A stretch of 63,192 nucleotides of DNA, filler included, from Hausera hauseri (taxonomy: Eukaryota): NCBI GenBank assembly GCA_046269625.1. It is 10 parts of 10 records of this genome, joined end to end, with 100 filler letters (N's around TTAATTAATTAA, not from the genome) between each part and the next. Parts side by side here need not be neighbours in the genome. Positions count along the whole stretch, not along the records: positions 41,627 to 49,244 come from JBJURY010004458.1; 9 more parts are not named here. The stretch is one strand, 5' to 3'. Of the stretch, positions 7,236 through 52,240 are shown in pieces. Positions within the stretch are counted from its first letter, which is position 1, and each line of letters opens with the position of its first letter. A model generated the notes under the pieces. It searched no databases. It worked only from the letters and a program-made list of their open reading frames with translations, and was not told the DNA's origin. Made by a program: the position numbers and the translations under genes.

Positions 7236-7456
7236 TAATTTTACGATTGGAGAATTTAATGCAATTGGAGAATTTAAATTTGACAGTTTTTCTCGATTCT
7301 CTTTTTTTGATACATTTCATTTGTTTCAATATATATTAGCTGTTATATGTATGAATGCGTTGTAACTGGTTAAGTTGTTATGAATTTATTATAGATTATT
7401 GAAAAGAATTTTTGAAATATTAAACAAGTATTCAGTAGTTATTTTCTTTCTATTCA

Positions 7457-28100: not shown

Positions 28101-31100
28101 AGTGTTAGTATATCGATTCTCTACCGTCCCGACCTCAACCTCACTTGATGATTGTAAGAGAGTTATCCATAAAAGATTTATTATAAAAGTTTGCATAACA
28201 ATTATCTTCTTCACTCATTAAATTGTTCAATCTTCATTAATTCGGCTTGGGAGAGACTTGTTNNNNNNNNNNNNNNNNNNNNNNNNNNNNNNNNNNNNNN
28301 NNNNNNTTAATTAATTAANNNNNNNNNNNNNNNNNNNNNNNNNNNNNNNNNNNNNNNNNNNNCGAGTTACAATTCAGATAGGAATCAAGGTAGCTACCTA
28401 TCAACTAATAAATATACGGATAATGGAAGTAATAATAACAGATATGACGGAGATAATAAACAAATATCACAGAGTAAAAATAAGAATGTAAACAGATCAA
28501 AATCACCTGTGAATAAAGATGATTGACAAAGGATTGGCCGAAATGGGAATTTAATTTGTTTTACGTGTGGAAAAGAGGGACATAGCGCCAGGTCATGCCC
28601 AAATTCTAGAAGTCACATTTACTCAACCGAACAAAACAAGTATGATTAGAAATAACTTAGAAGCCATCTATGGTAAACGAGGTGATTAAGCATGATCATC
28701 GAAATGCAAGACCTGTGTAGGCCTGTAAGATACTTAGTTTAAACTACTAATCCTCAAGTCATAAAAGCTAGGGAAGAGTATGAAGAGAAACTACGGCTAA
28801 TGGAAGTCTGTCATGGGTTGAGAGAACCAGAAACTGAAAAGAATGGGCACTGGAGCAAAATAATACTAATATAGCGCGTAAAAGTCTATTCCCCAAGGGA
28901 TAGTCCAGTCAGAGAAACCAACAACATCTGAGAATGTAGATTTAGACGCAGAATCCGAAAAGTACCACCCAGATGAAAAAACAGATGAAATCGAAAGTGA
29001 ATTTATGGGACTATTAGTTCTCAAAATAACAAAAAATAAAGGTAGAAGCCCATCGCCTAAGAGAAAATCCAAGACTCGCTCAAGATTTCCAATAAAAAGG
29101 ACGCAGAAGAAAGAGGAGACTCCTATACCGTTATCCTAGGAGACGACTCACCTTTAGATACGCCATAAAGGACTTTAGAAACGTTGGAAACACCGGATAT
29201 AATAAACATTAATGACGAAATTAATGAAATTTGTCCGCTTCCAGCTAGTGAGGATGAAACGAAAGTTAGTAATGATTTCGACGCGAGAAAATGGAAGGTT
29301 CGATGTTCATGGAAGAACGCCGACGAACTAAAGAGAATAAGAATTATATGTCACGACCCAGAGATACTTCGACACAATTTAGAAAGACTTAAACAGATCA
29401 GTAAACAAACAGACATATCTGGTAAGGAACAACAATTTGCGGAGAAATTATACAAGAGCTTAAAATTATGGAGCGAAGGGAAGCTCGATGAAGCAATTGA
29501 CATAAGACAATCGGAAGAAATACCACGAAATACGTTAATAAAATGGAACCACGAATTAGAGTCGTGGATTAAAAGTGGAGTAGAATTTTCGGAAGGATGG
29601 AGTAATGACGAAGATAATATTAGCGTAAAAGTAGCTGAAGCGCAAACAATGCTATCTAGCTTAGAAGCTAATCCTAAGTTGAAGCGAACAGCCCGTAACT
29701 TAGAACGTAAGATGGACGAAATACGTTATATAATAAATCACCTTAGAGAAAAATCGGTTAGCAATCGAAGTCATATCGATTTAGAAATATTGGGTATAGA
29801 ACTGACAGACATTTCTCCCTTAATGGAGATGATAAAAAATTCCTTTGTCAAAAACAGTCGATGTGCGGACTTAGAGAGCCGCATCGAAATGGAGAATGAA
29901 AAAAGATTACAGATCAATACTTTAAGAAACCGAATTATGTTCCCAAGCCATGGGGAAACTTAATACGTAATAAAAGCTTGTATTGTAAAGACGAGTTTAG
30001 TTATGCCGGTCGAATTATGAACTTTCTAAGAGGGCCGGACGATGAATTAAAAGATGCACATAATATGTTAGATAAGGCTATAATGGCAGAACCAGTAATC
30101 GCAAACCAATTGTCGGAATGGTCCGAATTAGTAAACCGACTAAGAAAGTTAGTAGAAGACCGAAAAAAAGAATTTCCACAAAGCGAACCAACGGTAAAGA
30201 AGCAGCTAGAAGAAAGTGCACATGATCTAGGCACAATGCGACTGGAAATAGACATCTGTACCCAATTCGAAACATTAAGACGGTTAAAATTTATGAGAAG
30301 AGAACAAGAAACGTCGATATTGAAGGAGATCTATAAATTGATCGAAGAAACGAACTTCACGGAAAAACGGAACATGATTTACGATGTAACTTCAAAGTTG
30401 AAGGTTGCTGGACTCGAAGGAATCCAATACTTAACGGAAAACCAATCGACAAGATCTCTGCCCAAGGCATTAAAATCTTAGACATCTGTCCTGGACATCG
30501 AGATACGTTAACAGATGAAATAAAATTCTTGCATAGACCACAAGAATGGATGACCGGATCAGATCAGAATTTTCATACCAAGTTGACAAAAATAAGAGAT
30601 GACTCACATTTTAGCTTTTACAAACAAAAGTTCGCAAAGAAATTGTTGGATGCAATGGACCCCGACTCAAAAACTATAAATGAGATGTACGAATGGCGGA
30701 GATTAGTGACGAAAGAATGAGGCAATTAATGCCAAGATACAGAAAGTAGAAGAAACTTGCATTAAAACAAAACAAAGAGCAACAAGGTTGGATGAACTAA
30801 GGAACGAATTTGAAGTTTATCGGAACATATATCCTTTTACTGAGTCAGAGATAAAAAATAAACGAGAATTTGTACAAAGATGGCAAAGAGATGTGATTAT
30901 CGAACTAACTGATTACCATCAAAAGGGATTCATCGATTCTAATGAATTAAGCGAATTACTAAAAAGATTCAATACGCTTGCGGGAACGGAATAGGTTTCC
31001 GAACCACACAAATAAAAGAGATACAACCGAGATTGAAAGAAATTCGAGAAAATGTGCAAAAAACGAACACAGCTCTTGTAAACTATGGACTTCCAGATAT

Positions 31101-31408
31101 CAAGAATGAACCAGGATGGGATGCCTATTTAGAAGAAATAGCGGCTGAAAATCCGGTCACTTCGGTACATCTCGATGAAATACAAACGTATCCGCAGAAT
31201 AGGAAATTCAATGTAGAAATGCTCTTAGATTCAGCGTTAACTGAAAAAGATTTAATGGAATCAATTAATGTGAATATGACCGAAAATAAACTCAGGCAAC
31301 TTATTCCGATCTTAACTAAATTATCTAGCAAGAATACAATTTACAACATTGCCAAAACTTTTGATAAAGAAGTACGAAATTATTTTAAGAACTAAACCTG
31401 AGGTAGTG

Positions 31409-31630
31409 ATGAGAGTAGTGATATCATGCGACTGGATGGAAGAAAAAGAATTTGAGATAACTACTTATTCCTACGTAAAGGACGTAAGAGAATGGTTATT
31501 AAATAATAGCGAAACAAATGAGCTAAATTACAGATTTTATTTTAGAGGAAGAATACTTGATGATTTAGAGCAGTTAATAGATGTCGGAATTATTCCCGAC
31601 GAAACAAATCGGATAGTAGTAACAATAGCC
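31409..31630 (+). pseudogene. Ubiquitin-like domain inside the element C polyprotein (no terminal GG)
   Basis: MRVVISCDWMEEKEFEITTYSYVKDVREWLLNNSETNELNYRFYFRGRILDDLEQLIDVGIIPDETNRIVVTI follows the beta-grasp pattern (ubiquitin [21 protein letters not shown]). Confidence 0.75.
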
Positions 31631-32350
31631 AATGAACAGACGAAAGAAGAAGCCACGTGAAAGGCTAAAACGGAACAGTGTGTAGGACAAATCATGGGAG
31701 CGCGAGATGCAGCAATGTATTTCGAATATTTACAGACGGATGAAGACAAAGAACAATATGACAAGAATCTAGTACCTTTGAGCGGGATGCCAACTAATGC
31801 TCCAAGACAAAAACGCCCAGTCGGTAGATCGAGGAAGCCCCGAGAAGAAATCGATTATAACGGAGATCTGATTACAGAGTTAAGACAGATGTCCATTCCT
31901 ACTTTTTGTACAGATAATAAAGAATAAAGCGAGTTAATAAAAAATGTAATACGTATCGTAAATTATTCGAGTTTCAGCGGAGATACATTAGATGACAAAG
32001 AAAAGGCAATATTTAACGCAGCCAGAACAATGAGAAGTTCGAGTTTCAAACTGTCGAAAAGTAGTCTAACCGACGACGCAGTAGTTGAGAAAATTATAGT
32101 GGAGAATACGATAAAAGAGCTAAGAAAAGTATTATTGTATTTGACAATTAAGACAAATCCGAATCAAGAAAATGAACTAAATCGAGCTACGAGTTTGGCT
32201 CGAAAAGCATTTAGGAAACTTCCGTGTGAAGTAAATTGGACAAAATTGTTTGACAAAGAAGAAGACAAGAGGAATAGTAATAATGGACTAGGAGACATCA
32301 TGCGGAACTTGAGGATAACGGATAATAACAACCGAAAGAATGAATCTAAT

Positions 32351-34434
32351 TGGTTAATCAATTTGCTCACCATAATGATGTTGATAAAACAGATGGGCAC
32401 CGTCACCGTTCACGATTGCGATAAATTTAAGCTCGGCCAAAAATACTCATTAATGGATTTAGAAGCGTGCGAAGATGCCAGATCACATGAATTGGAGACT
32501 AAGGAGAAGAACTATTTTCTACACTAACAACAAAAGTTGATATCCTTGGATGGCATGGAATGTATGCTGAGACGATCTCGTAGCATTTTTCATTGTGGGC
32601 TAATGTACGGACACTCCTCAATAATTAAACCAACAACCCCTCCGATCCCAATGAATTTGGAAAGACAACATTGCAAGCAAGCTCGAGAAACCGGAAAACT
32701 GAAATGAGAAAGCCTAGAATTAGAAATGCCGCCCGGAAAAATAATCAGAGCGTATAAGATAGTAGCCGGAAGACTGGATATGCATAACGAGCACTGTAGT
32801 GGAACGGAATACGATACCGGAAAAGGATTGGAAGCAAACGTAATGGTAGTAGATTTTTACGAATCAGAAAAACAAGTCCAAAAAGTAATGTTTCATAGTG
32901 TCACTAAGCTATATACTGAGAATCAAAAATGCCACATGCAAGACGGAACTTGCGCTTTCCGAAGTTTTGACGTCATATGGGAACTGCCCACCGGAAAAGC
33001 TTGCAATTTTATTAAGATCAAAGAACTGAGATTTAATGAAACTACTGGAAAGCGATACGTAGACAAATTCGATATAAGTTCAAGAGCACGTGAAAATGTA
33101 TCAGAGTATCATACATCTACGATATTAATCTCTGATCAACACGGATTGAAATTCATAAAAAAGGAAATGATTTCAAGACGTGAAGTAGTAATGTTCACAA
33201 CTCATTAGGAAGCATTCTTCGTCGCGGAAACGGAGATAAACGCGAAAACATACAACCTGGAAACACAAGACATTCGAATCGAGGATTATCTGAAAAATAA
33301 AGACGATTATTTCTATTATAAAGTACAGGTTGGAATAGCAGAACTATACCATAAAATGATAACGAACGACTACAAATTTGATACGGAAATTATGAGGACA
33401 AAATTAGCTCTTATTTATGCGAACCCGGAATTAGCCTCACCAATTATTCCCATGAGAGAAGGAATTTTTGGTTGAGTTACTGGTGAAGTTCTACTGACAT
33501 ATGAATGCGACAAAAGAGACGTACTAATTAATGTCGAGGAAAAACGATGCATACAAAAACTTCCTGTGATCTACCAGAATACTCCGCGCTTAGCCATGCC
33601 TCTCACTAGAGTATTGCTAGACAACGCAATTCAACCTACCATATTAAAGGATTGCAAAGCAAGTTTGGGTGAATGAATGCTTAGGCGTAGCGAAACGGAT
33701 TGGGTTAGCTTAGCCAATGGAGGTGTCACTATTATTCAAAAAAACTAACTGGAACTAATTTAGCAAAAGGAATGAACGACGACAAGTTTCAGGATACATC
33801 TTAGAAAGGCATACATAGATTTAAAGAAATTGAAGCTTTTCGGCAATTTCTCGCTTTTCCACGACAGCGAACACACGAATTAAATCGGGCCATGGAATCA
33901 GTAGTAGATGATACTCGATACCAAGCGAAATGGGAATCCCTGCTTGGTGAAAACCATTACCAACGGGTAACCACAGAAATACTTTACAAAATATGGGGAA
34001 GATTTTTAATTTTTGGACAAGCGGCATCTGGATTTTTAGCAATCTATTTCATGGTACAACTAGTGAAGGCGGTAATCCAAGCGGTTATAAATGGGTATAA
34101 AATATGCACGCTAACAGGATTTTCTTGCAAGATCTTAATCGCAATTATCACACCGTTTGGCAAAATGCTTAAAGCATACGAAGAAAATCGATGGAAAAAT
34201 GACGTTGAACTCCATGTCGGCTACTATAATTATAAACGTCGAGCAAGACCCATATTTCGATTGAAACACAAGGCTAAGAAACCAATGACACGAACAAATA
34301 ACTCCGGTGATGACGAGCCTAAGGGAGGAGAAGCGATCCTCAGACAAAATAAACACAAAATGTACTCAGTAATTAGTGTACCCTTACCTATCATTCCGCC
34401 AACGGCTACGAGGATTGTGACAAAACATCTATGA
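32351..34434 (+). pseudogene. Chuvirus (Jingchuvirales)-type envelope glycoprotein with an internal signal peptide and C-terminal TM segments
   Basis: Reading through stops: WLINLLTIMML..VHDC..YSLMDLEAC..ECMLRRSRSIFHCG..HS..CKQARETG..AGRL..HCSGTEY..CHMQDGTC..IW..ACNF..GIFG*VTGEVLLTYEC..CIQKLPV..PLTRVL..IWGRFLIFGQAASGFLAIYFMVQLVKAVIQAVINGY. Confidence 0.85.
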
Positions 34435-34834
34435 TGTCATATAGATCGGCATTCTGTCAGAAACCTTTCAGCTATGAAGATCCTTATGAAGGAAGAAAGC
34501 AATATGGAATCTTAAAGAAAATGCAATTCACTAAGCAATGACGAGCGGAAGACGACCACAGGATATTGTACTCACCGAGGATATCTCGGAATATAGAAAC
34601 AAGATCAACAGTCTGGGGAATGTAAGGAGTGAAATCGTTCCAAAATCCAATAGTACAAGAACTATTAATCAGAAATAATGCAAATAACATGGCAGTTAAC
34701 GACTTATACCCCAACAAAGAACTGAAACAGCTGAGTGAAAATATTATTTCATCACCAGAGATAACGATAAACGGACATGAAAATTTTTCGATTAAACGAC
34801 CGAAGGACGTGTCGAGCTGTTATGGGTCAGTTAT

Positions 34835-35145
34835 GGAAGGAAGACCCTTTACAAAAGTTACTATCGAAGATTGGGAAATCTATGCCTTAAAAGACACTGG
34901 ATCGGAGAAATCGTTTATCAAATTAGAATCAATACCACCGACACTCCGAAAACAACTGCAGCTAGAATCATCAGCAGACCCAGGCAGCATAGGAGCCTTC
35001 AGGCAAGAATCCAAACCAAAATTTAAATGGAGTCCTTTAGTCCAGTTAATGGGTCAAATTCTACTACGCGAGTTTGCCATAATGGATCAATTAACCGACG
35101 ATGTAGTGCTAGGTTGCGACATACTGAAACAATTACCCAATATCG
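34835..35145 (+). pseudogene. Retropepsin aspartic protease of element C
   Basis: GRPFTKVTIEDWEIYALKDTGSEKSFI...DDVVLGCDIL. Confidence 0.85.
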
Positions 35146-35245
35146 NNNNNNNNNNNNNNNNNNNNNNNNNNNNNNNNNNNNNNNNNNNNTTAATTAATTA
35201 ANNNNNNNNNNNNNNNNNNNNNNNNNNNNNNNNNNNNNNNNNNNN

Positions 35246-36691
35246 ACTCCTACTAATAATTCCGACCTTCTTCGTCGTTATTTTCTGTCTTCCCTGCCAA
35301 CATCCATTCGAGCTCTACTTACAGTAGTTGATGAGTCTACACCCATTGAAAAACTTGCACTACTAGCGGATAAGAGTTTCGACATTCTTCAATCCAACAG
35401 TTCACAGCCAGTAGCAGCATCGTCCATATCCAAGCCTCCAGAAATACCATCCACCGAGTCACAGGAGCAGACTCCCTCAACCTCGAAAATCCAACAGCAG
35501 TTTTTGAAACCAATGGATGTTCCGTCATATTCTCCAACAGCAAACACGCTCTTGAATGATGTGTCGCCAGCAGTTCCTTATGAACTTTACAAGGACTTTC
35601 TAGACCCAATATCCGAAGCCCTAGACATCATTTACCATTCTATTAATGAAGAACATCTGTCTACTCCCAACAAAACAAGCATCATCGATCAACTAAACTT
35701 TATTCGAAATAAAGTAACAGAAAAAGCGATTCAACACGCAGCATACTTGACCTCATTTAATATTTTGCAGGTCACAATATCGAAGAAACTGGATCATATA
35801 CCATTAACGAAAGAGACAGTATCATCGAGCGCAGTAACAACCGTTCCAGTTCCATCCCCAGTTCCATCTTCACAACCCACCAAGCCGTATGCAGCAATAG
35901 TGAAAGAGTCTGCCTCGGCCCGCCCACCCCAGCAACAGACGTTGATTATAAAATCCACGCTTTCTAAACCTCTAGAAGCGACGAAAAAATGCGTGGAACG
36001 GACTCTTCACAAAGAGCGCTTACTCGTTGAAAGAGTAGATTTCACAAAACAAGGAACAATTCTAGTACACAGCAGTGATCCTGAAATACTAAGACAATTA
36101 GAAACTCATTTAAAATCAGATGTTTCCCAAAAGGATTTACAAATAACACGGAAAGGTCCAGCAACCGGAAAAATTATAGTCTTCAGCGTCCCGAACTATA
36201 CCCCAACGTCTGCCGTCCAAGACGCTATGGTTCACGCGTATCCAGATTACAGCCTGGAAGACGTAAAATTTGTTAAAGCCCCTCCAGGGCGGTTAGATTC
36301 AAAACATGTGGTGCTAGAAGTACCCTTGTCTTTACAACGACTCATCCTCTCAGAGAAAAACCAGGGCCGTCTTCTGGTCGGATTATCCCGTTGCTTAGTG
36401 AAAAGATACCATGTAATTTCACGCTGCTCTCACTGCCAGACAATTGGTCACCCAGCGACTCGTTGTCCCACTCTGGATCAACCCCCAATCTGTGGGAAAT
36501 GCATGTTGACACACTCCACAGACAAATGTGACATTTCCTCAACAAAGTATCAGTGTATTAACTGTACTCTAAGCAACAAAGAATTACAGACAAAATATTC
36601 TGTAAATCATCATACAGGAGACCGCACATGTAGAACATACCAAACAACTTCGAGGGCCTTGCGCCTTTCACTAGAGACAGTAAAAGCTTAA
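35246..36691 (+). CDS. Hybrid ORF1: Gypsy Gag C-terminal capsid segment fused in frame to LINE ORF1 with three zinc knuckles (5' end open at the contig edge)
   Basis: 86 stop-free codons from 35246 (TPTNNSDLLRRYFLSSLPTSIRALLTVVDESTPIEKLALLADKSFDILQSNSSQPVA...) run into ORF 35504..36691, which ends in CSHCQTIGHPATRC, CGKCMLTHSTDKC and CINC..H..C. Confidence 0.85.
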   Translation, partial: TPTNNSDLLRRYFLSSLPTSIRALLTVVDESTPIEKLALLADKSFDILQSNSSQPVAASSISKPPEIPSTESQEQTPSTSKIQQQFLKPMDVPSYSPTANTLLNDVSPAVPYELYKDFLDPISEALDIIYHSINEEHLSTPNKTSIIDQLNFIRNKVTEKAIQHAAYLTSFNILQVTISKKLDHIPLTKETVSSSAVTTVPVPSPVPSSQPTKPYAAIVKESASARPPQQQTLIIKSTLSKPLEATKKCVERTLHKERLLVERVDFTKQGTILVHSSDPEILRQLETHLKSDVSQKDLQITRKGPATGKIIVFSVPNYTPTSAVQDAMVHAYPDYSLEDVKFVKAPPGRLDSKHVVLEVPLSLQRLILSEKNQGRLLVGLSRCLVKRYHVISRCSHCQTIGHPATRCPTLDQPPICGKCMLTHSTDKCDISSTKYQCINCTLSNKELQTKYSVNHHTGDRTCRTYQTTSRALRLSLETVKA

Positions 36692-39600
36692 CATTCTTAT
36701 TAGGACAGTTAAACTTACAAAATAATCGTTCAGCTACATGTGCGGCAATTTCTTATTTTATACGTAAAAATTATTCTTTAGTGCTTCTGCAGGACGTCTA
36801 TCTGTTTCGGGGTCGCCCTTTAAGTTTACCCCTTCATTACCCTATATATTCTTCAACAAACCAAAAAGCCCACATCATAGTTTTAGACCCCAATATAAAG
36901 CATACCATCTCATTAAAAGCAGACAATGTAATTTTCATAAATATAACATTCGACTCAACAATTTGGAGTATTGGAACCCAGTACTCCCCTCCCTCAGGAG
37001 ACCTTTCGGCAGATTTGGCGTCCTGGAGTGGACCTTCTCGTTTAAGCAAGTTTTTGGTTTTTGGTGGTGATTTGAACGCCCATAGTCCCTTGTGGGGCTA
37101 TAATCACGAGGACTCCAGGGGTCGTTCATTGATTCATCATTTTCACAGACAAGGTCTGATCTGTTTGAATGATCCCTCGAGCCCTCCGACGTTCGAATTA
37201 CCCCACATTTTTGGATGGCCTGATGTTACCCTTTGCTCTTTAAATGTGTTTTCCCTCTTCTCTACATGGGAAGTTGATCGGGATCTCAATTTTGCTGATC
37301 ATCGTCTGATAACAGTAACTTTCCAGCAAACAATTACTTTACTTCGAAACGCCGTTTTCGCACAAAAGGAGTACCGTTGACCAAAGTCACAAACGCAATT
37401 CTTTCCGAAATAACCCCTTTACTACCTAAGCTAGCAACTAGCACAACACCTATTGAAGTAGACACTATAATTGAACAATTCGAGGAAAAGATACTTTCCC
37501 AAAGTAAACTTCATTTAAAACAAAAACGACAAAATTATCGTCCACAAGTAAAGTGGTGGTCACCGGCGCTCCGTGCGCAACGAAATAAACTCAGAGCTCT
37601 TTATCGGCGGACTAAATTTGACTCATCTTTAGAAATTCAAACACAATACAGACGTTTCAAAGCGGTCTACAAAAGATCGATACTTGAAGCAAAACGGAGA
37701 TCCTGGCAACAATTTTGTGAAGGAACGACCTCAGCTTTTGGTACGACGCAAAAGTTAGCTTTTGGCAAAAACTTGTCCTCCACAGAACTCCTAGCTCTCG
37801 ATAACTTGCCCCCAACAGAAGTCGTCTCTCGCCCCTTAACTCTAAAGTTTATCATCAACTCAATCTTTGGCACTGAAGGAATTCGTCCTTCTTCACTTCC
37901 CTCTTCTCTACCCTCAGTAGCTCCAACTCATCCACTTACGCATAATGAACTAAAAACTGCTATATTTTCTTTTAAAAAAACAAAAGCCCCAGGTCCAGAT
38001 CAGCTAGATCATATTTTATTACGATCCCTCTATTCCAAAAACCCAGATCTCTTCCATAATCTTTTCTCAAATCTATTCAATTTTAATTACTTTCCAACTT
38101 CCTGGAAAAAAGGGGAGGTCGTTCTTTTTCCTAAAAGGGGAAAGAGTCCAGCATTGGAGAGCTCTTATCGTCCAATAACACTTCTTCCAATTTTAGGCAA
38201 AATTTTAGAAAAAATAATACTAAATCGTATAGAATTTCACATTTTCCAAAACAATTCCTTTCATCAGAACCAATTTGGCTATAGCGATAGGAAGTCTACA
38301 GAATCAGCAATTATCACAGTAATAGACCTAATTCAAAAAGCCCGTGATTCGGCCAATTTTTCTTTAATCGTCTCAATAGACTTCAAAAATGCTTTTGATT
38401 CCCTTCCTTGGCCCCAGACTTTAAAGCTCCTCACTTCTTTAAATCTCCCTCAAGAGCTCTTTAATCTGGTTTCTTCTTTCTTGAAAAATCGTTCAGCGAT
38501 AGTGGATTGGACATCCCCCAAAAATTTAATTTATTTTACAAAAGGTTGTCCCCAAGGTTCTTGTCTGGGACCCTTCCTCTGGAAGCTTCTTTTAAATTCC
38601 TTACTTTCGACATTCACCCTAGTAAATTCAGAATTGATAGCATATGCAGACGACCTGCTTCTGGTGGCGTGGGGATCCACTCAGATCTCTCTGGAGACAA
38701 CAGCTACGAAAGCTCTCCAATTTATCGAAAACTGGGCAATAAATAATAACATCAAAATTTCTACAGAAAAGTGCCAAGCTGTAGTTTTTCCAAGGCACGG
38801 CCCAAGACCTCGAAACCAACCGAAGAAACATGCCTTTCACTGCAATAACATCCACATGAAAAGAAATCCCACATTAACAATCAACAATCAACGCATCCCA
38901 ATTAATCTGGAACTCTTATATCTTGGTGTAACCATTGACAAAAATCTTTCTTGGATACCACATTTACGGCAGAAAAAATCTCAAATTCAATTAATAATCC
39001 AAAACTTATTTAAATTCGCGGCAGTGAACGGTGGTGTTTCCACCACGATACTAAAGATCTGGTACAAAGCCATTCTTGAAAGAGTGGCTCTGTACGCCGC
39101 TGTTAGCTGGTCGTCTTCCCTCTCAAAAAAAGGTTTCGAGCTACTACAATCAATCCAACGGATGTGTCTCATTTTAATATCCAAAGCTTACAGGAAGACT
39201 TCCACTGCCGCGCTGCAAACCCTAACAGGAACTTTGCCAATCGATTTACAACTGAAAAAAGAATCTCTTTTGGCCACAGCGTATCGGTTTCGCAGAGACT
39301 GTCAGCTGGAGGACTTGCGGATTCGAGCTTCTTCTCTCGCAGAGAAACCATCAAAATGGACATTACCCCCTTATTCAAAATTACCTCTTTTGGATCCTTT
39401 ATCCCACCAAGAAAAACATTCCTCCTTAGAAATTTACACAGATGGCTCGAAGCTCCATTTAGGAACGGGAGCGGCCTTTTGTGTCTTCCAAAATAATGAA
39501 TTAATCCATTCAGAGAGTTCAACTCTGGGAGATCGGAATTCGATCTTTCAGGCAGAACTCTTTGCCATTAAACAAGCAACGTCTTGGTTTCACTCTTCTT

Positions 39601-40298
39601 CGTTCGAGTCTGCAACTCTTCTAACGGACAGTCGTTCAAGTTTGGAAATACTGCAAGATATTTACAATAAAAATCCAATAGCCCTAGAAATTTTGCAACT
39701 TATTCAAATTCTTGAGAAACCTCTCCACTTTCGCTGGGTGAAAGCCCATGTAAATGTAAGAGGGAATGAGTTAGCTGACACGCTGGCCAAATCTGCAGCT
39801 TCATCGACGACTCAGAACCGTCAGTGTCTTCCAGTTCCTCCTTCATTTATTAAAAAACTACTAAAAGAAAAAATCGAGCAGATCTGGCAGACCCGATGGT
39901 CCAACCCACAAACAAAGGGACGCTACACCTTCCAGTTCTTCCCTAAAGTCTCAACTGCCCTCACTCTCATACACCGAAATTTGTTTCTATTTTTTACCAA
40001 TCACGGTCCATTTAACGAATACTTATCAAAATTTAATAAAGCACCAAACACATATTGCATTTGTGGAGGAATCTCCAATTCTCAACACTACATCTTTGAT
40101 TGTCCCTTAACTTCACAATACCATATTCGCAAATCCTCTACCATTCCCCTCCCGAATTGGACTTCTCTCTTACTCACTCGACAAGACTTACAATATAAAA
40201 TAATAAATTGCATGAAATACATAGAGGACAATCAGTTAACATTTCAAAGTGTTAATCCTCCTCTTCCCTCTTCTGGCAGAGACTCTGACGGTTTCTGA
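36690..40298 (+). CDS. LINE ORF2 (APE-RT-RNase H-CCHC), R1/LOA-like, with a single frameshift near 37340
   Basis: QLNLQ, GGDLNAHSPLWG, FADHRLI; APGPD, YRPITLL, DFKNAFD, GCPQGSCLGP, YADD; IYTDGSK, QAEL, TDSRS, WVKAH..GNELAD; CICG..H..C. Confidence 0.93.
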
Positions 40299-41626: not shown

Positions 41627-42156
41627 TCGCGTGAAAGATCATGCTTCATGACTTTATCCAGCAGTTTCTCGATTGCCTTGAAGTAAGCCTCTGGGTCTGC
41701 ACCATTTATTCTGTACCCGGGCGCTTTTTTCAGGTCTTTGCAAAGCGTTGAGGATCGAGCGAAAGCCTTCCCTAGTCGTTTTAGATATGCAGTTATCTTC
41801 GCATCTATTGTCTCGTATCTTTCTGGTGCTTCTTCTTCCAAGACGCATTCAACCATGATTTCCCGTTTTGCCGCCAGGGTATTCATTTATTTAAAAAAAT
41901 TTTCACATCCTTTAATGAATTTCTCCACGTCGTGTCCATTCTTGAATTTGTTGGGCAACAATTGGTTCGCGAAAATGTCCATTGTGGCGTAAGTCGCCAT
42001 GTTGGCCATGGACTTATCTACGCCGTCCACATCGTTGTCCCGCTTAGGCATGGTTGGAAAATCTCCGCCCCCTGATATGTCCGCTAAAGTAAAATTTGAT
42101 TGTTTGTAGATATTCATTGCAAAGTTAACACCAGTTTTAGAAAATTTTATTGTCAC
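41627..42156 (-). pseudogene. N-terminal Gag-like fragment of another LTR element
   Basis: LLPNKFKNGHDVEKFIKGCENFF*..VLEEEAPERY..YLKRLGKAF has a retrotransposon capsid-NTD-like pattern. Confidence 0.5.
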
Positions 42157-42329
42157 TCAAAATACTTATTTGGAAACAAATTTTCCAAAATTCCAAATTT
42201 AAATCATACTTTATTGTAGCACATTTAAATTAAATTTTTAAAATTTAAAAATGTTTCTAATTTAAATCTAGAATTTTGGTTCTCGATTATATTCTCACTT
42301 AAATTACTCACGACACGCATGCATCAAAC

Positions 42330-42539
42330 AATTACGAATCTTCCTGGGTATATGTAATTGCTAAAGAAATATTATCAAAAAATGTGCGGTATACCCGGAA
42401 TAGTCGAATCACTATGCGGAAAAAGTAAAGAAAAACTCGTTTGGTCGGATAACCACGAAAAATCATTTGAAGAGTTGAAACAAGCATTAACCGACACATC
42501 GGTATTGGCATATCCAAACTCTAACAAAGAATTTATACT
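42330..42539 (+). pseudogene. Gypsy RT thumb/RNase H junction fragment, interrupted by the LTR of element D
   Basis: FLGICN..KLVWSDNHEKSFEELKQALTDTSVLAYPNSNKEFIL ends just before the expected TDAS. Confidence 0.8.
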
Positions 42540-43261
42540 TGTTAGTAGTTGAAGGTGGGCCTTGTCCAACACCCAACTATAACAATTCGTGAATTCAAAT
42601 TTAAGATAGTTTTAATTAAGCAGATAAGTTCTAACGTTCTCGTTAGAATGTTTGCACTATTTTAACTTGCAGGTACTGCGTGCGGTGAATGCGTAAATTA
42701 CAAAACTCTAGTCTTAACTATAGATTTTAGACAAAAGATTTTATACCCTAGTGTCGTGCTAGTCCCTCTTAAAGAGCGACGGAAAACTATAGCAATTTTA
42801 AAATACAATATATATTTGAAAACACAATAAAAATACCACACCGATTGAATACAGTTTCAAATTAAATCGTCAACAAGAGTAATACGTCTTCGAATTAACT
42901 GAATACTCTGAAATCGCTTTGCTAATCGTTCACTGAATTTTTCGCCTTTCTACTTGTTCGATCTAATGATCTAAGCACTGCTTTATATACTAGCGGATTT
43001 TCTATTTACAATTTGATAATTCGTTTTCTCGAATTTCCGATAACTTTTACAAATAAACATTCAATTTATTTCATTATACCAATGATATAATCAACTATAT
43101 TCTGTACATAAACTAATTAATTCAAGCTTTATACTTGTAAACATCCACATAAATTAATTCATTTAAGCCTCGATTATTTACATAACAATTAATCATTGTA
43201 CATCCGTTATAATTTCGATTATGTACATACTCACGTCTGGTAGTAGTTGTACTTTACGACA
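42540..43261 (-). repeat. 3' LTR of element D (about 720 bp, TG...CA)
   Basis: Minus strand starts TGTCGTAAAG right after the PPT GGGAGGAGAAA (43262-43272) and ends ...ACTAACA at the break in the host RT. TATA-like GTATATAAAG at about 42981-42990. Confidence 0.75.
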
Positions 43262-43271
43262 TTTCTCCTCC

Positions 43272-44225
43272 CTAAACGGCACTCTCAAATGTGCCCATTG
43301 CGTCAGTTGAGGTGCCGGGAATTTGTTGTAATCGTTCCATTCGTCCGCGTAAGTCCGCTTCCGAATCTATTTCGTTTGATGGGGATCGCGAGTCAATATG
43401 ATAGGATGTATTGGCCTGTTCGGGGACTATCTCTATTATTTTCTTATTTTCTCCGTTCGAATAATATCTCAGCCTTGTAGCCTCGGCTCTGCATACCGGG
43501 CAGGTCGTCTTCCCATTTTTCAGGGTCCACGTTTCTAAGCAGTATCGGCAGTACTTGTGACTGCAATCTTTATTATCTAGGACTACGAATCCTTGGTATA
43601 GGTCCGCATCGCAAACGGGACATTCTTCTTTTTCAGCAGCATCAATGTCCACAAGATTCTCGTCCACTTCTATTCTTTCAAACACGAGTCCTTTTCTGTC
43701 TTGGTACAAATATCCGTACAATCTCTTTTGATTGGGGTCTATTGAACTTTTTCTTGGATCGTCAGATACTGCTACTAGGGTCCATTCTACTATTTCTTGT
43801 TTGTCCAGATCGGGTATTCCAGTTTTCTTATATTGTCTTTTTAACTGAATTCTGACTTGGGTGTCCACGGGAATTGTTAACCTGTTAGTGCCACTTTTTG
43901 ATTGAAATATTGGGGCTAGGTATCTGCCTATGGTGTGATCTTCTCTGGCATATCCGTTTCCACTCACTATTCTTCTTGGAACGGTGGACACGTAAAATAC
44001 AGCCTCTTTGATTTTTCCTCTGCTGTAATATTCGGCCATAACGAGGATTTTCTTGTACTCTTTCACTTCGCCGAATTCTGTAACTATGATCGGGGTATCT
44101 TCCTCCCAGTTCTTCCTGAGAACGTTAACTTCTGACTTAAGAGATTTGGATTTCGTAATTTCCAACGGTTTTCCACTGTCCTCTTTCCTTTTCTCTCGAC
44201 TTAATATTCCTTTCTGATTATTCAT
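43272..44225 (-). CDS. C3HC4 RING-finger protein, C-terminal part of element D ORF3
   Basis: CPVC-x14-CSHKYCRYC-x12-CPVCR. The stop codon overlaps the PPT. Confidence 0.85.
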   Translation of the reverse strand: MNNQKGILSREKRKEDSGKPLEITKSKSLKSEVNVLRKNWEEDTPIIVTEFGEVKEYKKILVMAEYYSRGKIKEAVFYVSTVPRRIVSGNGYAREDHTIGRYLAPIFQSKSGTNRLTIPVDTQVRIQLKRQYKKTGIPDLDKQEIVEWTLVAVSDDPRKSSIDPNQKRLYGYLYQDRKGLVFERIEVDENLVDIDAAEKEECPVCDADLYQGFVVLDNKDCSHKYCRYCLETWTLKNGKTTCPVCRAEATRLRYYSNGENKKIIEIVPEQANTSYHIDSRSPSNEIDSEADLRGRMERLQQIPGTSTDAMGTFESAV

Positions 44226-45779
44226 GGGTTCCTCCGGAATTGGGTTATCTATTGTTGATCCTTTTTCGTCAATTTACCCTTACTGGTCTTGCTTCTCTTT
44301 TTATGGATATAATCCAGGAAGGAGATTTTCGTCTTCTGCCCTTTTGGTTTTTCTGACGCATCACATTTTATCATCGGTTCTTCTGAGCCTTACTAGTTGA
44401 TGGCTTCTGTTGGTTGTGGATGGTTATTCGCATTCGGTTCGGTCCTTGGGGTTCGATTTATCGATAACTTGGGTATTCACTAAACCCTTTTCGGAATTTT
44501 TGTATCAGTGGTTTAGGATTATTGTCAGATATCGCATACTGTACAGGCTCTCTAGGTTTCCATTCGTGATCCCATCGTAAATGGTCACAGACATTCTTGA
44601 TACATTTTGTTCGCTGGCTCGCCGTCATTAATTTCGGGAAATAAATCCTTCGCCATTCATGGCTTCAAGCATCATCTTGAACTGCGATTCGGGCGACGCT
44701 GAGGCAAGAAGTAGACATCCTCTTTTCCGCATTAAGGTGTTTTCCACTTGACTCACGACAGTGGGGTTTCGGCTTATTTCTCGGATGCCGGCTAGATATT
44801 CCTGTCTGATTCGTAATCTTTCTAGTGCTTCGTGGACTCGGAATTCAGTAACAACGTATCCATATAAACAGTGGCTGATGTCTTCTTGGATTTCCAAAAA
44901 ATCTTTACCTTTTTCCAGTTGAGGTTTGGTAATTCCAGTAACATCGGGGAAAGTATCTTTGATTCTAACCCGAGGTGCAATTATCTTGTTCACGACTCCT
45001 TCTTCGTTTGTATTCCTAATGGAGATTTCGATCGGAAAGTACCACCCTTCATCCTTTTCTCCATAATTCACTGCTAATATCCGGGTATTTCAGCCATCTG
45101 AGACTAATCTATACGATTCCCCGTTTTGTTCAATCTCATCTTCTGAAGGTTTCTGAATGTATACTAGCGGGGGTAACGGCTTCATTATCTCGGTTCTCCA
45201 TGTCATTTCGATCATAATTTTGGTTGGAATGTCCGCGATTCTAAACTACAGTGCATAATCAATGAGGCTAAAACAGCATAGCTTATAAGTGATAAATTTC
45301 CATTGTTGCCCTTTTTGCATACTCCAGGATTGTCCTACGATCCTGTACTGAATTTCTTCATGAGCGACATGTATGTACAATTGCTGGTGTGTTGGTTCAT
45401 AATGAATTAGGTCCCTCAAGTGATACACTCGTACATCCTTGGGATTTCTCATGGCGTATAATCGGACCAGTCTGTTTTCTTCTAGACCCCATTTTAACCC
45501 GTTTGGTATTTCGCTCTCTTTGGTGAATTCTCGGTAATTAGTATTTTTCAAGTTTTCCCCGATTTGTCAGTATAAGCTTTTGGATAAGAGTTTTAGGACC
45601 GTAACATGCTGTTGCAAGAAACTATCAATGTCGAAACTGGAACTGTTTGAGGAATTCTTCACCTTCTCGGTCATACTTACTCTGCTGAAATAAAAATAAA
45701 GGTTAAGCCTAAGACAGATCATCGTTTTGAAACAAAACATTTTATCTGTCCGATGATAGGATAACCCGATCTGTAATTG

Positions 45780-47090
45780 TCAGGTTATGCTATCATAAAG
45801 TTCGTCTTGGTTCTCTTTTACCCATTTATCTCCCTTTCGATTTTTACCGCGTTTATTACAATATTTGGAGACTAGAAAAATCATCGCTGTTATTATGACA
45901 AGAACGGAAATTGACACACTAAGTATAGTTATTACTGATAAGCTGTTCGGTTCGGTAGAACTTTGTGCCGTAAACACGTCTAGTGTACTAATATCATGAT
46001 ACGACATTGCTTCAATTTTTACCAAGAGTTCGTACTGTAAACGTTTTAGGGTTCTTACCCTCTGCAGTCATTCTGATTATGTACTCCTGTTGTGATCGTA
46101 ACGTCTTACATGCCGTCCCTAAACTATTCTTTTTCAGGATTACGACTTGGTTAGTATGTAGGGTGCGACACTCAATTTTGACGTCTGTATTTAGTACTTC
46201 TTCAGCGTAGAATAGAATCCTATCGCTCTTCGTTAGGATTTTGACCGGTATACTTCCTAGAATTTCGTTTGTAGTGATAATCGTGATGCTGCGGGCTGTA
46301 CTCGACGTCATGGATGGTTTTCCCGTAGTGGTCAGAAATGGGAGTTCCCATAATCCGTTCTTTGGACGATATCCTCTTAGGAAAACACTCCGTTCACCTG
46401 GATAGGTATCGTACAAATCAAATTGTAGTTGGTACCTTTGTCCTAGTTGTATTACACAGCATACGGTGGGGCGTCGCTTTGCCAATGAACAATATGGCGG
46501 TCTAGAAATAGAAGCGTTCAATGGTGTAAGCTGGACAGAAATTTCCTTGTCTTCAGGTCCTCCGAATTTGGTTCTGATTTGAATGCATTGGTTCTTAAAA
46601 TCCTTGTGAATTTAGACAATGTTGTCATCTAAGAGTCTGTTAATCGGATTGGTGCTTCGAATTATTTCGTCCGTTTTTGCTTGATTTGCATCCTTTTGTT
46701 GCGGCATTCGTATTGTGAGCTCTGAAGCTAAGTCGGCTTGAGCCCCAAATTTATAGGAATAAAATATCTGGAAGCTATATCTATAGACTTTTCCAAAATC
46801 TAAATTACAGCATCTCCTGTAACGTCCGCATGGAAAATCACACACTCTTATATCGTCTCCAGTAGTTACAAATGTTATTTGAAATCCTATGTGGCTCTGA
46901 ATAGGTTCGTCTGTTTCAAACCATGCGCATGGTTTGCTCCAGTCCATATCGCGTATTCTAAGCGTCTGTAAATTTTTGATAACCTTTTGTTTTTCGGTTC
47001 TAGCGCTTGATTTCACCGTAGGTATATATGAAGCGATTAACGATAACGCTAGGACGATTTGTACATAAGATATTGGTCTAGTCACTATTA
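45780..47090 (-). pseudogene. Type I membrane protein (signal peptide, three FN3-like repeats, TM, short tail) fused to the integrase C-terminus
   Basis: ISYVQIVLALSLIASYIPTVKS signal; CCNLDFGKVYRYSF, CCVIQLGQRYQLQF, CKTLRSQQEYIIRM; TM VITILSVSISVLVIITAMIFLV followed by basic residues. One stop (46612) and one frameshift (about 46020). Confidence 0.65.
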
Positions 47091-47099
47091 ACGATGCCT

Positions 47100-49244
47100 T
47101 CTTTTCTTTGTTTGTTTTGCTCGAACGTAGATTGTAACGTTTATCCGGTCTTAATTCAGTTTTGACTACCCTCTGAATTGATGTGACTTCTTCTTTTCCA
47201 TTCTTGTTTATGTAAACTGTAGTCGGCGTAGTTCTTGTAACTTCATAAGGTCCTCTACCTGTCCTGGTAAGCTTAAGAGATGTGCCTTTTTTCGCTACCG
47301 GGTAATGCACATAAACCCAATCTCCTTGTTCCAAATCATGTGGTTTAGCCTTTTTGTCGTATTGTCCTTTAAATTGTTCTTGGTATTCTTTAGATAATTC
47401 TTTGGCTATTTCCCAGCATTTCTGTAATCTCGATTGCAGTACTTCGACGAAATTTTGCTCTAAATCCTCCGTTCGAGTTGTATATGGAATCAGTCTCAGG
47501 TCTGTGGGCAGCACGGCTTCTCTACCATACATCAATAAAAATGGAGTAAATCCTGTTGCCGGATGGGGGGTCATATTAATGGCGAACTGTGTGCCTTATA
47601 AAAATTCATCCCAATCCTTCTGGTCTTTTGTGACTACTGTTGATAAAATCCGTGTAACGGTTGCGTTCATTCGTTCGACCATTCCGTTACATTGGGGGTG
47701 ATAAGCTGTGGTAGTTAATCGTTCAATCTCAAAAATCTTGGAAATTTTCTCGAACAACTCGCTTGTAAAGTTTCTTCCTCTATCTGTCAATATTTGTTCG
47801 GGTGACCCGTATTTGCAGATGATTTTCCGTACTACCGCTTCTGCTAGAGTCTCAGCTTTTTGATCAATTAATGCTATAAGTTCAACGAAATGAGTCAATC
47901 GGTCAACACAAGTCAGAATATATATCTATTATTCTTGTGAGTCGTAGGCAACGGTCCTACAATATCCATAGACATTGCTTGCATTGGCCTATCTGGTACG
48001 TCGATAGGCTTAAGTTCGGCAACGTAATTCTTTACTTTCTTTTGTTTGGTTGCGCATACTTCACAAGCGTTTACCCAATTCTTTACGTCAATGTAGACAC
48101 TCGGCCAGTAGTATTTGTTTAATATTCTTTCCAATGTCTTTTTCCATGACATGTGCCCGGCTAAGTATGAGTCATGTTTAGCCATGAGCACTTCTGCTCT
48201 TAATCCTTTCGGTATGACGACTAGTTTCCGCCCTTTTCGTTCGTAATATAATATATCTTCTTGATTTGAATTTCCAGTGACTCAATATTTGTGACCATAT
48301 CTTCGCAAGTGTTTCCGCAATTGGTGTCCTCTGGGGATTTTGTTATCATTAACAAATTCTACAATCTGTCGTATAACATTGTCTTTTCGCTGTTCAATAG
48401 TAATTTTTAGTGCCTTGTCTAAAGTGAGAGTTCGTTGCCTCTCTACTAAATTTTCAAGGTGTGTCTTCCTCATTACTGTCACTGCGCTAGTTTTGGTTTT
48501 AAGCCTAGATAATGCGTCGGCATCGACATGTTTGCTTCCAGGTTTGTATTGAAATTCGATGTTGTATCGTGAGATCTCTTCGATCCACCTGTTAAGTCTA
48601 CAAGTTGGGTTGTTCGCTCTACCTTTCAGAGTCGTGACTGCTTTATGATCTGTGACGATTATGATCTTTTGTCCGTAGACGTATACATTAAAATGTCGCA
48701 GGGCTTTTTTCACCGCCAATGTTTTTAACTCTGTTACGGAGTAATTCTTCTCTGCTTTCTTCAGTGAGCGTCCTCCATATGCAATTGGGTGTTCCAATTC
48801 CTCGTTCTCTCGTTTTTGAGCTAGCTCATGTCCAATACCTTCTTTGCTGGCATCTGTTTTGATTATGAACCGTAGTTTGAAGTCTGGATATCTTAAAACA
48901 GGTTCACTAGTTAAAATTTTCTTCATCTCATCAAAAGCCTTTTGTTCTACGTCGGTCCATTTCCATTTGATTCCTTTCTTCAACAAGCGATACAGTGGTG
49001 CATTTATTTTTGCGTTTTCCGGTACATAAGTAGCATAATATCCACACAATCCCAACCAATGTCTTAGTTCTTTCTGATTCTTGGGCTCCATACAATCCGA
49101 TATTTTGATCAATAACGATTTATCCGGTTTTGATCCTCCTTCTCCTACTATATGCCCGAGATACGATACAGCATTCTGAGCCCATTTGCACTTCTTGGGA
49201 TTTAACTTCAGTCCAGCCTGCTCTAGCCTCATGAGCGTATCTTC
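47100..49244 (-). pseudogene. Pol of element D (RT end, RNase H, integrase)
   Basis: ORFs 48282..49232, 47913..48191, 47596..47898 and the first half of 46612..47574. Confidence 0.92.
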
Positions 49245-49785
49245 NNNNNNNNNNNNNNNNNNNNNNNNNNNNNNNNNNNNNNNNNNNNTTAATTAATTAA
49301 NNNNNNNNNNNNNNNNNNNNNNNNNNNNNNNNNNNNNNNNNNNNACAAATTTCAGCGAGTAGCGTAAACTCACCACAAAATTATTTCATGAAATTTTTTA
49401 CCAATGAATTAATTTGAAAAGACGTTCAAGATGAACAAAGTAATTGGTATTACAGATTCAGTTTAGTAGAGTTGTCAAGAATTTCAAGTACCCGAAGAGA
49501 TCCAACGAATCAACTTATAGTTTAAATAACAAACTTCGAGTTATACAGTAAAATGGTATTCGTAGTGTTGACTTTTGAGATGCATTTTTGAATATTTGAT
49601 AAAATTAACCTTATATTTCTTAAAATACTTTATTAGTAATTGTTGAAATTACAAGTCAAAATTTGTGATTACTATTCATAATATTATAACATGATATTTA
49701 AATAACTGAACATGGTAAATTTAATCAAATTATTACAACAAATGATATAAGTTCAAAGTATGTATTTGTAAATATGACTAATAAT

Positions 49786-52240
49786 CAGGGCCGTTCTTAG
49801 AAGTAGCCAAACGAGGCAACTGCCTAGGACCCGCGTTTTAAATAGCCGTTGGGGCCCCACGCTTCAGAGCAATCTGTGGAGTAAAAGTATGTGAAATAAT
49901 ACCATTATTGTGTCGTCTGCTCTCTAGGGCCATACTCACTTAAAAGATAAGACAATAGATAATAAAGAAGAATGGTATTTATTATTCTAAAAACTACACT
50001 TATTTATATTTGAACAAAATACAAATAAAAAATTTCAAAGTAAAAAGTAAAACAACTTAATTTTAAAAAGTAAAACGATTCAGTATAACATATATTGTAT
50101 AAACAGTAGAGTATATGATAATATTATTGATCGGACAAGTTTATCATTTTGGTACTCTTAATGCTGTTTGATCGCTGATTTAAGGGCATATTTGTGTTTC
50201 TGAGCATTTGCACATTTTCCTTTTTGAGAAAAATTAGACAGACCTCAAGAAACAAATGACTAGAAACAGAGATATTAGTCTCCATTATCCTAGTGGAAGC
50301 CAAAACGTGTTTTAACGTCTAAGAAACAGGAATAAGCGAAAGAACAATGTGGAACAATGGATAAATACCTTGTCCAAGCACCGATTTCTGAACCGCATTA
50401 AGTTGTTAAACAGTTACAAACACAAAATTATGAAGTCAGTCAAGATGAGACGTTAGAGGCGCATGTTACCTCTACTCAGATCACTGCATCTGGAGAATTT
50501 TTAATCATCCAAATGATGGAGAATCTGATCATAAGTCTTCTAGTGAGACCATTCAGAACTATGATAATGAATGTACGAACAATTTGTCCGGAAAAGGTAA
50601 TCAAAATGGCGTAAACATAATTATGTGACAGTGACGTTCATGATGGTTAGCAACGCCAACAGTTTTTAATGAATTTTGAAGATCCTTCACTTTGGCCCCA
50701 CTATCTAAACACTTGTGATCGATATTTCTTGGCAATGAAAAGTGCACCTAAAATTGAAGGTATGAATTCTCCAAGAGACCACGAAATAAAAAGTGGATTT
50801 TCAATGAGTCATCTAGAGCGACGTTTACCAAATGGTCAACTTGTGAACCGTCAAAGAACTGTGTCTTCCGTTTTTACTGCAAGCTATTTGCAAAAATGAA
50901 TTCAACTTTAGCGTCGGATAGATTCCGTGATTGGAAAAATGCAAGTGTGCGTCTTTCTAAACATATTACAGCAACTAAAGAGTGTCTAGAACTTGAACTA
51001 CGGCTTAATAAGAAATGCACAATAGACAAAATCAGTCAGAGAATGATTAACCAAGAGGAATCTCAATGGTGAAGTGTTTTTGAACGTCGCTTGCTATTGT
51101 ACAGTTTCTAGCAGAACATACCATGGCTTTTTGTGGATCAGTCGATAAATTGTATTAACCATATAATGGTAACTTTCTTTGGCTAGTAGAGTTGATTGTT
51201 CCATTTGATTCAATTTTTGCAACTGCACCTGCGAAAGGCAATGGATAGCCAAATTTATGATCATTACTTGGGACATAAAATTCAGAATGAACTCATTTCT
51301 CTTATGGGCAACAGGATGCGATCAACCATCATCAAAGGAATAAAATTTGCAAAGTACTTTAGTGTGATATTAGATTGCACGACAGACGCTAGCCATGAGG
51401 AGCAAATGTTGCTAACAATAGGATATGTTTCAGATGGTTCCGTCGATGATGTTCCTCCAGGAATATACCAGCACTTCATTAATTTCATTGTTGTTTCTGA
51501 AAGCACGGGAGAAAATCTAATTGATGTCCTTCTAGAAGGTCTCAGGAACCTGGTGCTAAATTTTGCTGATTTACGTGGACAAGGTTATGATAACGGTGCA
51601 AAGGAGAAAAGTCTGATGTCCAAGCATGTCTTAAAGAAATAAATCCACGCACCTTATTTCCCCCTGTGCTTGTCACAGTTACAACCTCCAAGTTGGTGAT
51701 ATGGCCAAATTTTGCCCAAGGCATGGTATACTTCGTTACTATGCAACGATTATACGTTCTCTTTTCTGGATCTGTGAAAAGATGGGAAATATTGCGTCAA
51801 TTTGTAACAGGTCTGACACCCAAACCTTTATGCGAAACAAGATGGGAATGTCGTATAGATAGTGTAAAGGCTGTGAGATATCAAGTTGAAAACTTTTTTA
51901 TTATGCATTGATCGTGTTATCAAGAGGAACAAACGATCCAAAAACTCAGACTGAGGCTGAATCATTGGTTAATGAGCTAAAGAATTTCAAATTCCTTGTT
52001 TCCTTGTGCTTCTGGTATGATGTGTTGTTTAAAATACACAGTCCGTAAAGAACTTCAAAGTATGAGTGCAAATTTTTCAGATGCACTAAATGGCCTGGAG
52101 AGCATTTGCACATGGCTAATAGATTATCGTCAAAATGGATTTTCAAGTGTCCTGGCTAACGCAAATGAAATTGCAGAGGGTTTGGGCATATTTTTGTGAG
52201 CCATTCTTTCAATTGAAAGTAATGTTTTACGAGAATTGGA
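49786..52240 (+). mobile_element. Degenerate hAT transposon (ZMYM1/DUF4371-type transposase)
   Basis: Terminus CAGGGCCG; YLGHKIQNELI, YFSVILDCTTDASHEEQ, RGQGYDNG, ETRWECRI, AILSIE..F..KARK. Confidence 0.88.

Follow-up and report, generated by a model that had tools for sequence, protein, structure and literature searches.

An LTR element of Hausera hauseri raises the question of what stands in the env slot behind its pol gene, and whether that product is made as the tail of pol. The element lies on one contig of the window, by which the whole analysed stretch of 63,192 nucleotides, filler included, is meant. A sequence-only reading had proposed that the integrase continues in frame into a surface protein that is not a fusogen, and this proposal is supported, at the level of models, by the predicted fold together with the related copies described below. 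The reading preferred here, to which a probability of roughly one half is given, is that the integrase frame runs into a conserved FN3-type transmembrane (TM) gene, likely encoding a non-fusogenic attachment protein. Its parts differ in strength: on alignments and predicted structures the FN3-type non-fusogen anatomy is very probable, manufacture as a pol fusion in the family of the window element is slightly better than an even guess, and an attachment rather than a decoy role is an even one.

The element and its gene order

The element is a multi-copy Ty3/gypsy retrotransposon, of which the window holds a decayed copy (Table 1). Pfam matches give the order reverse transcriptase (RT), RNase H and integrase, which is the pol order of Ty3/gypsy elements (Metaviridae), and in a PDB sequence comparison, made with no tree, the closest solved relative of the RT/RNase H part was Ty3 Gag-Pol (E 3e-40), retroviral chains following at 9e-17 or weaker. 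An assembly gap at 49245 truncates pol, the contig beginning inside RT on the minus strand. By frame reading, the integrase is disrupted by a frameshift near 47920 and a stop at 47598-47596, and its C-terminal part gave a weak MLVIN_C match in Pfam (E 0.037, below its cut-off). The RYNLRS motif at its end may be a nucleosome anchor resembling a motif of foamy-virus Gag, an idea kept here as a lead. The nucleosome anchor of foamy-virus Gag is described in PMC6042332, whose available text does not give its letters.

Table 1. Features of the element and its flank, given in the direction of transcription (positions along the window)
Feature	Positions	Strand	Basis or remark
Ty3/gypsy element, broken copy	42752-49244	minus	on contig 41627-49244
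pol: RT end, connection and RNase H	48282..49244	-	Pfam RT_RNaseH_2, E 5e-34; stop at 48282
Integrase zinc finger and core	47596..48281	-	Pfam Integrase_H2C2, E 2e-19; rve, E 1e-11
Integrase C-terminal part	47122..47595	-	GPY at 47253; RYNLRS at 47139-47122
Signal-peptide-like segment	47008..47085	-	in frame with integrase; hydropathy; nearly identical to signal segment of P0004
FN3-like domain 1	46699..46983	-	four Cys in common with P0004; P0004 alignment and model of P0004 residues 77-161
Premature TAA of this copy	46612..46614	-	sequence
FN3-like domain 2	46345..46611	-	four Cys in common with P0004; Ser/Thr-rich linker after it; alignment and models
FN3-like domain 3	46018..46260	-	two Cys common to all three sequences; alignment and structure matches
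Frameshift of this copy	46012..46020	-	between domain 3 and stalk; frame reading
Stalk, TM helix and tail	45780..46011	-	juxtamembrane Cys, basic cluster, YxxIT end, stop; same layout in P0004 and P0005
Coding pieces with no assigned kind	44274..45716	-	stops and probable frameshifts; covered in related runs
RING-finger frame, 333 codons open	43272..44273	-	RING at about 43625-43488; zf-RING_2, E 6.8e-8, above cut-off
Polypurine tract	43262..43273	-	sequence
Candidate 3' LTR, 510 bp	42752..43261	-	6-bp inverted ends, TG start, CA end
Leader and broken frame, gag-like by position	41627..42751	-	candidate only; no Pfam support

The junction and the membrane-protein gene

From 47595 to 46615 the frame is open and leads from the integrase core through GPY and RYNLRS into a hydrophobic segment, just as the sequence-only reading had described. 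Between 46020 and 47595 this frame holds a single stop in 525 codons, the other two frames holding 38 and 35. The best 19-residue Kyte-Doolittle mean of the signal-like segment is 1.81, and a scan of the window copy for in-frame ATG codons found none from 47532 to this segment. As a correction to the earlier description, the gene of the window copy is interrupted by the TAA and the frameshift listed in Table 1: past the TAA the same frame resumes as far as about 46015, and the TM helix and the ELYDSIT tail sit in a different frame from domains 1-3. The TM stretch, the basic stop-transfer segment behind it and the ELYDSIT tail were all found, the TM stretch comprising 24 residues (45941-45870) with a mean hydropathy of up to 2.85. 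Hydropathy and the structure model agree on a predicted type I layout, with a signal and a single helix.

Distant homologues

A HMMER search with domains 2-3 against 1.84 billion representative proteins, with no length limit, returned only two matches, namely P0004 (479 aa, E 7e-33), which is intact and 33-36% identical, and P0005 (189 aa, E 5e-20). The two are single-member ENA records, on contigs of 4939 and 16242 bases respectively, and are known here from the protein sequence. P0004 aligns with the window protein from the signal through the tail and has the same four-four-two Cys pattern, all ten ectodomain Cys standing in matching places, as well as the Ser/Thr linker and the juxtamembrane Cys with its basic patch; the YxxIT tail end is common to the window protein, P0004 and P0005. 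Layout and cysteines are thus kept at 33-49% identity in homologues that look intronless. A word-based protein search with the ectodomain matched none of 968 candidates, the same kind of search with alignment A3 found only P0004 among 4456, and locus scans of viral contigs and metagenome contigs found no relative. Alignments A2 and A4, which place window domain 2 onto P0004 domain 1, were left out of folds and searches.

The sequence-only reading had seen three repeats, each ending in a motif like the FN3 tyrosine corner. The strict motif is present in two of the three window domains, at least two matches being reached in 1 of 20,000 shuffles, and in all three domains of P0004, where one extra match occurs. 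Compared as repeats, domains 1 and 2 alone show a clear likeness, their score being reached by 4 of 2000 shuffles for the window protein and by none of 2000 for P0004. Between domains 3 and 1 there is no likeness (score reached by 514 of 2000 shuffles for the window protein and by 1306 for P0004), and between domains 3 and 2 at best a weak one (937 and 52 of 2000). A strand-B Trp is found only in domain 1, and the four-Cys pattern of domains 1 and 2 includes a CC pair.

Absence of a furin site plus fusion peptide had also been claimed. The first half needs correction for the window copy, which has a furin-type RYRR at 46824-46813; the second half stands, as no hydrophobic peptide follows RYRR and the window protein shows no hydrophobic stretch inside its ectodomain. 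In the P0004 ectodomain there is neither a furin site nor an internal hydrophobic peptide, the highest mean being 0.83. A furin-cleaved env is rejected, RYRR not being conserved in P0004.

Related copies in other sequencing runs

Sequence related to positions 43000-49200 was found in all seven listed runs, which represent as many organisms and studies (7 each) and all date from 2024, with word shares from 0.36 to 0.05; the run with the highest share may be from the window's own species. No RNA run was among those listed with related sequence. Runs X1 to X4 cover 30, 30, 30 and 29 of the 30 bins of 42600-49240 in short contigs, mostly at 80-95% identity. Uniqueness of the segment to this copy, which would have spoken against the sequence-only reading, is contradicted by these contigs and by the two diverged homologues.

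In each of X1 to X4, almost none of the contig depth agrees with the window at the TAA at 46614, and the same is seen at the stop at 47598. Length differences among related contigs occur at both frameshift sites, for the site at 46012-46020 in X1, X2 and X4. Because the related contigs differ from the window at both stops and vary in length at both frameshifts, these breaks count largely as private decay of the window copy.

At the junction, X1, X5, X6 and X7 list no indel in 46900-47330, and contigs of X5 and X6 bridge RYNLRS to the signal segment with no gaps. An assembly artefact or a unique chimera is rejected, the junction being bridged in other runs. Among the 40 rows listed of 117 in 46900-47330, those in 47041-47197 were checked by hand one at a time; none creates a stop codon, nor does any introduce a start codon at the signal. 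In the same 40 rows, 28 differences fall on the third codon position: the integrase side contributes 16 of its 20 and the part behind RYNLRS 12 of its 20 (p 0.013 for the latter). The wider region (40 rows listed of 1697) has no such bias, the counts being 5 of 12 in the ectodomain, 1 of 4 in the tail and 4 of 15 downstream. This wider count is a weak test either way, because its rows are mostly near-fixed differences from the window copy and the downstream part lies in a shifted frame.

These results bear on the suggestion that a host FN3 gene was captured once and is carried along as a neutral passenger. The broken window copy fits such a history, the evidence for selection comes from listed subsets of differences, and the two homologues are protein records; however, the third-position bias persists after RYNLRS, the breaks are largely private to the window copy, and the full layout and cysteines have been kept over the divergence of the homologues. 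A neutral passenger is judged very improbable.

Fusion to pol or a separate frame

P0004 has a start Met of its own close to the signal; its chain opens nine residues ahead of a further Met located at the signal segment and contains no integrase. Fusion to the integrase is therefore not general, and it may be specific to a family or be an in-frame overlap. The same protein is the starting point for a different account of the junction, by which the membrane protein would be a distinct ORF3, expressed like errantivirus env from a spliced or sub-genomic RNA, contact with the integrase being an overlap or pol ending by cleavage there. Errantivirus env is typically expressed from a spliced transcript according to the available text of PMC12992720, and the unusual conservation of the signal segment is what an overlapping RNA signal could cause. 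Three observations oppose a separate ORF3, namely that neither the window nor the listed rows of four runs have a stop or indel at the junction, that the third-position bias crosses it in one frame, and that the window has no in-frame ATG before the signal. A separate ORF3 is considered possible, on the unlikely side, and the pol fusion is kept as the working reading for the family of the window element.

Predicted fold of the ectodomain

Folded alone, window domains 2-3 were modelled as two seven-strand beta domains with a mean pLDDT of 47.9. In a Foldseek search of the PDB with this two-domain model, tandem-FN3 receptors ranked first with none passing E 0.001, and by VIA window domain 3 scored Z 9.3 to 7 against Ig/FN3 sandwiches. 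The model of P0004, built from a three-row alignment (mean pLDDT 50.5), comprises, in order, a signal helix, three domains of seven strands each and a TM helix, with a long helix after the signal (residues 32-74), most of which the window protein does not have. Domain 1 was folded and searched as part of P0004. With P0004, Foldseek reached E <= 0.001 for 219 PDB matches, the top one at 6.5e-9; those listed were all FN3-repeat proteins, and whole-chain TM-scores lay at only 0.13-0.17. P0004 domain 3 superposed on fibronectin FN6 with Z 11.1 and rmsd 1.8 over 76 of 84 residues.

The expected beta-sandwich is thus borne out by prediction as a chain of such domains, whose listed matches are tandem-FN3 proteins. 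At the sequence level, the best match to Pfam fn3 (PF00041) was 13 bits against a cut-off of 25, in P0005, with no match in P0004 or the window protein, and PDB sequence searches with the ectodomain gave nothing below E 0.24, the rows being at chance level. The FN3 assignment is a predicted one, since it rests on two low-confidence models with partly shared input, and sequence profiles do not confirm it. In the Atlas, P0004 fell near a 166-member arthropod cluster (433 aa, score 0.88), a candidate donor or further family, and near membrane proteins with FN3 domains (0.83-0.87, including FNDC5 and IL11RA at 0.85-0.87), all below 0.9 and with a low recognition value (1885).

Among viral structures, a single one, an Ig-like BIG2 protein, matched the window two-domain model at E <= 0.001; the weaker rows, at E 0.009 or worse, include glycoproteins of bunyaviruses and baculoviruses. 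No viral fusogen, whether of the class I or the class III fold, was among the PDB structure matches listed for these low-confidence models, and no Pfam profile of viral fusion proteins matched the window protein or its homologues at E <= 1 or 5. It could still be argued that the protein represents a class of fusogen not yet described, or that it supplies the receptor binding in an entry system of two parts with a borrowed fusogen, for example that of the gB-type element in the window. YxxI tails occur in retroviral envelopes, and this tail, the env slot, the type I topology, the long post-signal helix predicted in P0004 and the Monjiviricetes-type fusion gene at 33805-34434 of the window are all compatible with it. 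The ectodomain, however, has neither a conserved furin site nor a hydrophobic fusion peptide, the post-signal helix is mostly missing from the window protein, and three small separate sandwiches are unlike the F- and gB-type layouts in the available text of PMC13524379; either version of such an entry role is regarded as improbable.

Possible functions

A captured cytokine- or immune-receptor mimic would share the FN3 fold and would act quite differently, as a decoy or signalling damper in the host's own membrane, with the RING ligase directed against host defence and with no part in particle transfer. The fold matches include gp130, IL-22R1, IFNAR2, IL-12R and EpoR, the Atlas leads include FNDC5 and IL11RA, the tail tyrosine is kept in all three sequences, and the window element also has a RING frame. 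On the other hand, fibronectin, contactin, NCAM, Dscam and RPTP score as well as or better than these receptors, so that FN3 matches cannot separate a receptor from an adhesion protein, and the Atlas scores lie under 0.9 with the low recognition value given above. The WSXWS motif defines type I cytokine receptors, and it was not seen, by eye, in the window ectodomain or in P0004, which also tells against mimicry. A receptor mimic is held to be rather doubtful.

For the attachment protein preferred here, a plausible course can be outlined. In an unbroken copy, translation of pol would run on into the signal segment, which would act internally as a signal; after cleavage by signal peptidase the ectodomain would lie free in the ER lumen, and the integrase would stay cytosolic and be trimmed by the element's protease. 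The disulfide-bonded protein would then reach the cell surface or a budding membrane. Tyrosine tails sort retroviral envelopes to the surface or to budding sites, and here sorting might depend on the juxtamembrane Cys and basic patch together with the tyrosine tail. Particles or element-bearing cells could dock on the cell they target, for instance a germ cell, and be taken up by host endocytosis or phagocytosis, docking with host uptake being proposed because fusion machinery is lacking. The RING frame would provide an accessory ubiquitin ligase.

Carried further, a lineage of animal gypsy elements would have swapped its fusogen for a captured FN3 adhesion receptor, made as a pol tail and accompanied by a RING ligase, and would move from cell to cell or into the germ line by docking and host uptake, so that a third kind of envelope would stand beside F and gB. 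This extension is speculative and thought rather unlikely. The anatomy in itself suggests that an LTR element may keep a surface protein for docking or host interference with no fusogen, and with its RING frame the element resembles a complex retrovirus with accessory genes. P0004, an intact natural homologue, makes location, adhesion and fusion directly testable.

Downstream frames, LTR and leader

Behind the membrane-protein gene, positions 43272-45779 contain 12 stops in 836 codons, the other frames having 64 and 41. No Pfam match at cut-off was obtained for the coding pieces at 44274-45716. The part of the RING frame outside the RING matched none of 71 candidates in a word-based protein search, and in the Atlas the frame fell near generic RING clusters only (0.82-0.83). 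These downstream frames with the RING finger, and the LTR, were absent from the sequence-only reading.

A contig of X1, 514 bases long, matches the candidate LTR except for 2 letters. No second LTR copy was found in the window, where the 5' half of the element lies beyond the gap, and, as regards a primer-binding site, no TGG directly follows the candidate LTR. Any gag and protease genes upstream of RT would likewise lie past that gap. The sequence at 41627-42751 may belong to a following unit of an element in tandem or permuted arrangement, and positions 42600-42821 are covered in all four runs X1 to X4.

Relation to known systems

A recent broad survey has sorted envelope-bearing gypsy elements as F-type or gB-type and has used those two as baits (PMC13524379); in its main text the words fibronectin, immunoglobulin and RING are absent. 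A conserved FN3 receptor-like protein in the env slot is cargo that such F/gB-bait searches miss. Env-bearing Ty3/gypsy elements, including errantiviruses, are like the window element in having pol followed by a type I protein with a signal and a C-terminal helix, the env slot being followed in turn by polypurine tract and LTR (PMC13524379). Compared with errantiviruses, the ectodomain of the window protein differs in being modelled as three FN3-like sandwiches instead of F or gB, with no conserved furin site or fusion peptide, and the gene differs in being in frame with the integrase and in being followed by more frames and a RING finger.

Captured genes other than env are known from LTR elements of bdelloid rotifers, whose ORF3s encode a GDSL lipase, a DEDDy exonuclease or small TM ORFs of 210-230 aa in the available text of PMC5408684. 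These gypsy-type elements resemble the window element in carrying captured non-fusogen genes after pol, and they differ in that no FN3 receptor-like protein or RING finger is reported for them (0 occurrences in that text; PMC5408684). Host tandem-FN3 proteins, such as fibronectin, gp130, contactin, RPTP, Dscam and FNDC5, are like the window protein in its predicted seven-strand sandwiches, the L-x5-Y before strand F and the single pass through the membrane. They are set apart by only 8-19% identity in structural alignments, by the four-Cys pattern with a CC pair in window domains 1 and 2, and by the position of the window domains below the Pfam fn3 cut-off.

BEL/Pao elements have an env in the pol frame, joined to the end of pol via an internal signal, and these are true F- or gB-type envelopes; the window element, in contrast, has a Ty3-like pol and belongs to another superfamily. 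No report of an FN3 protein in an LTR element was found among the literature records listed, of which three, a fungal RNAi paper and two on tapeworm genomes, mention FN3, a scope outside which Repbase, Dfam, most subscription journals and supplements lie. The cargo, predicted to be FN3-like, is real and conserved, and apparently undescribed, in an ordinary superfamily.

Elsewhere in the window, Talin-like and VPS13-like frames are found, which together with a gB-type element suggest an invertebrate animal as the source, and this separate gB-type element carries the fusion gene mentioned above, with a Monjiviricetes_fusion match in Pfam at E 9e-19.

Signal segment and integrase end

The signal segment of the membrane protein (47085-47020, minus strand) retains about 17 of 20 residues in comparison with P0004, the intact 479-residue homologue, while the domains share 33-40%; on this alignment, conservation so far above that of the domains is unusual in a signal peptide. 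RYNLRS at the integrase end of the Ty3/gypsy element (47139-47122, minus strand) resembles the chromatin anchor of foamy-virus Gag, a motif that docks on the acidic patch of the nucleosome.

Surrounding elements

Since a leader and gag-like frame adjoin the candidate 3' LTR of this element, the arrangement on this contig is like that of an element in tandem or in circular permutation; past the next gap, at 41526-41200, lies a second integrase tail with GPY.

Other features of the window
Feature	Position	Strand	Remarks
Leader and gag-like frame	41627-42751	minus	directly after LTR
Second LTR-type element, broken	29169-35144	plus	fusion gene and retroviral protease matches
Non-LTR element	35198-40298	plus	looks intact, by eye
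DNA transposase remnant, hAT-like	50650-52200	plus	by eye
2477-codon frame without stops	7439-14872	plus	kinase-like part, VPS13 middle region, talin pieces

In the second LTR-type element, a fusion gene of the gB type (Monjiviricetes, E 9e-19) precedes the retroviral protease (E 3e-5), which corresponds to the gag-env-pol order described for nematodes, bryozoans and flatworms in a survey of env-bearing gypsy elements (PMC13524379).

By eye, the non-LTR element comprises a gag-like frame, an endonuclease-like frame and a 999-codon frame carrying RT- and RNase H-like motifs.

The 2477-codon frame, whose talin pieces are FERM/PTB and rod, is an intron-free chimera, apparently of three host genes, which may have arisen by true gene fusion or by capture in a mobile element, or may be an artefact.
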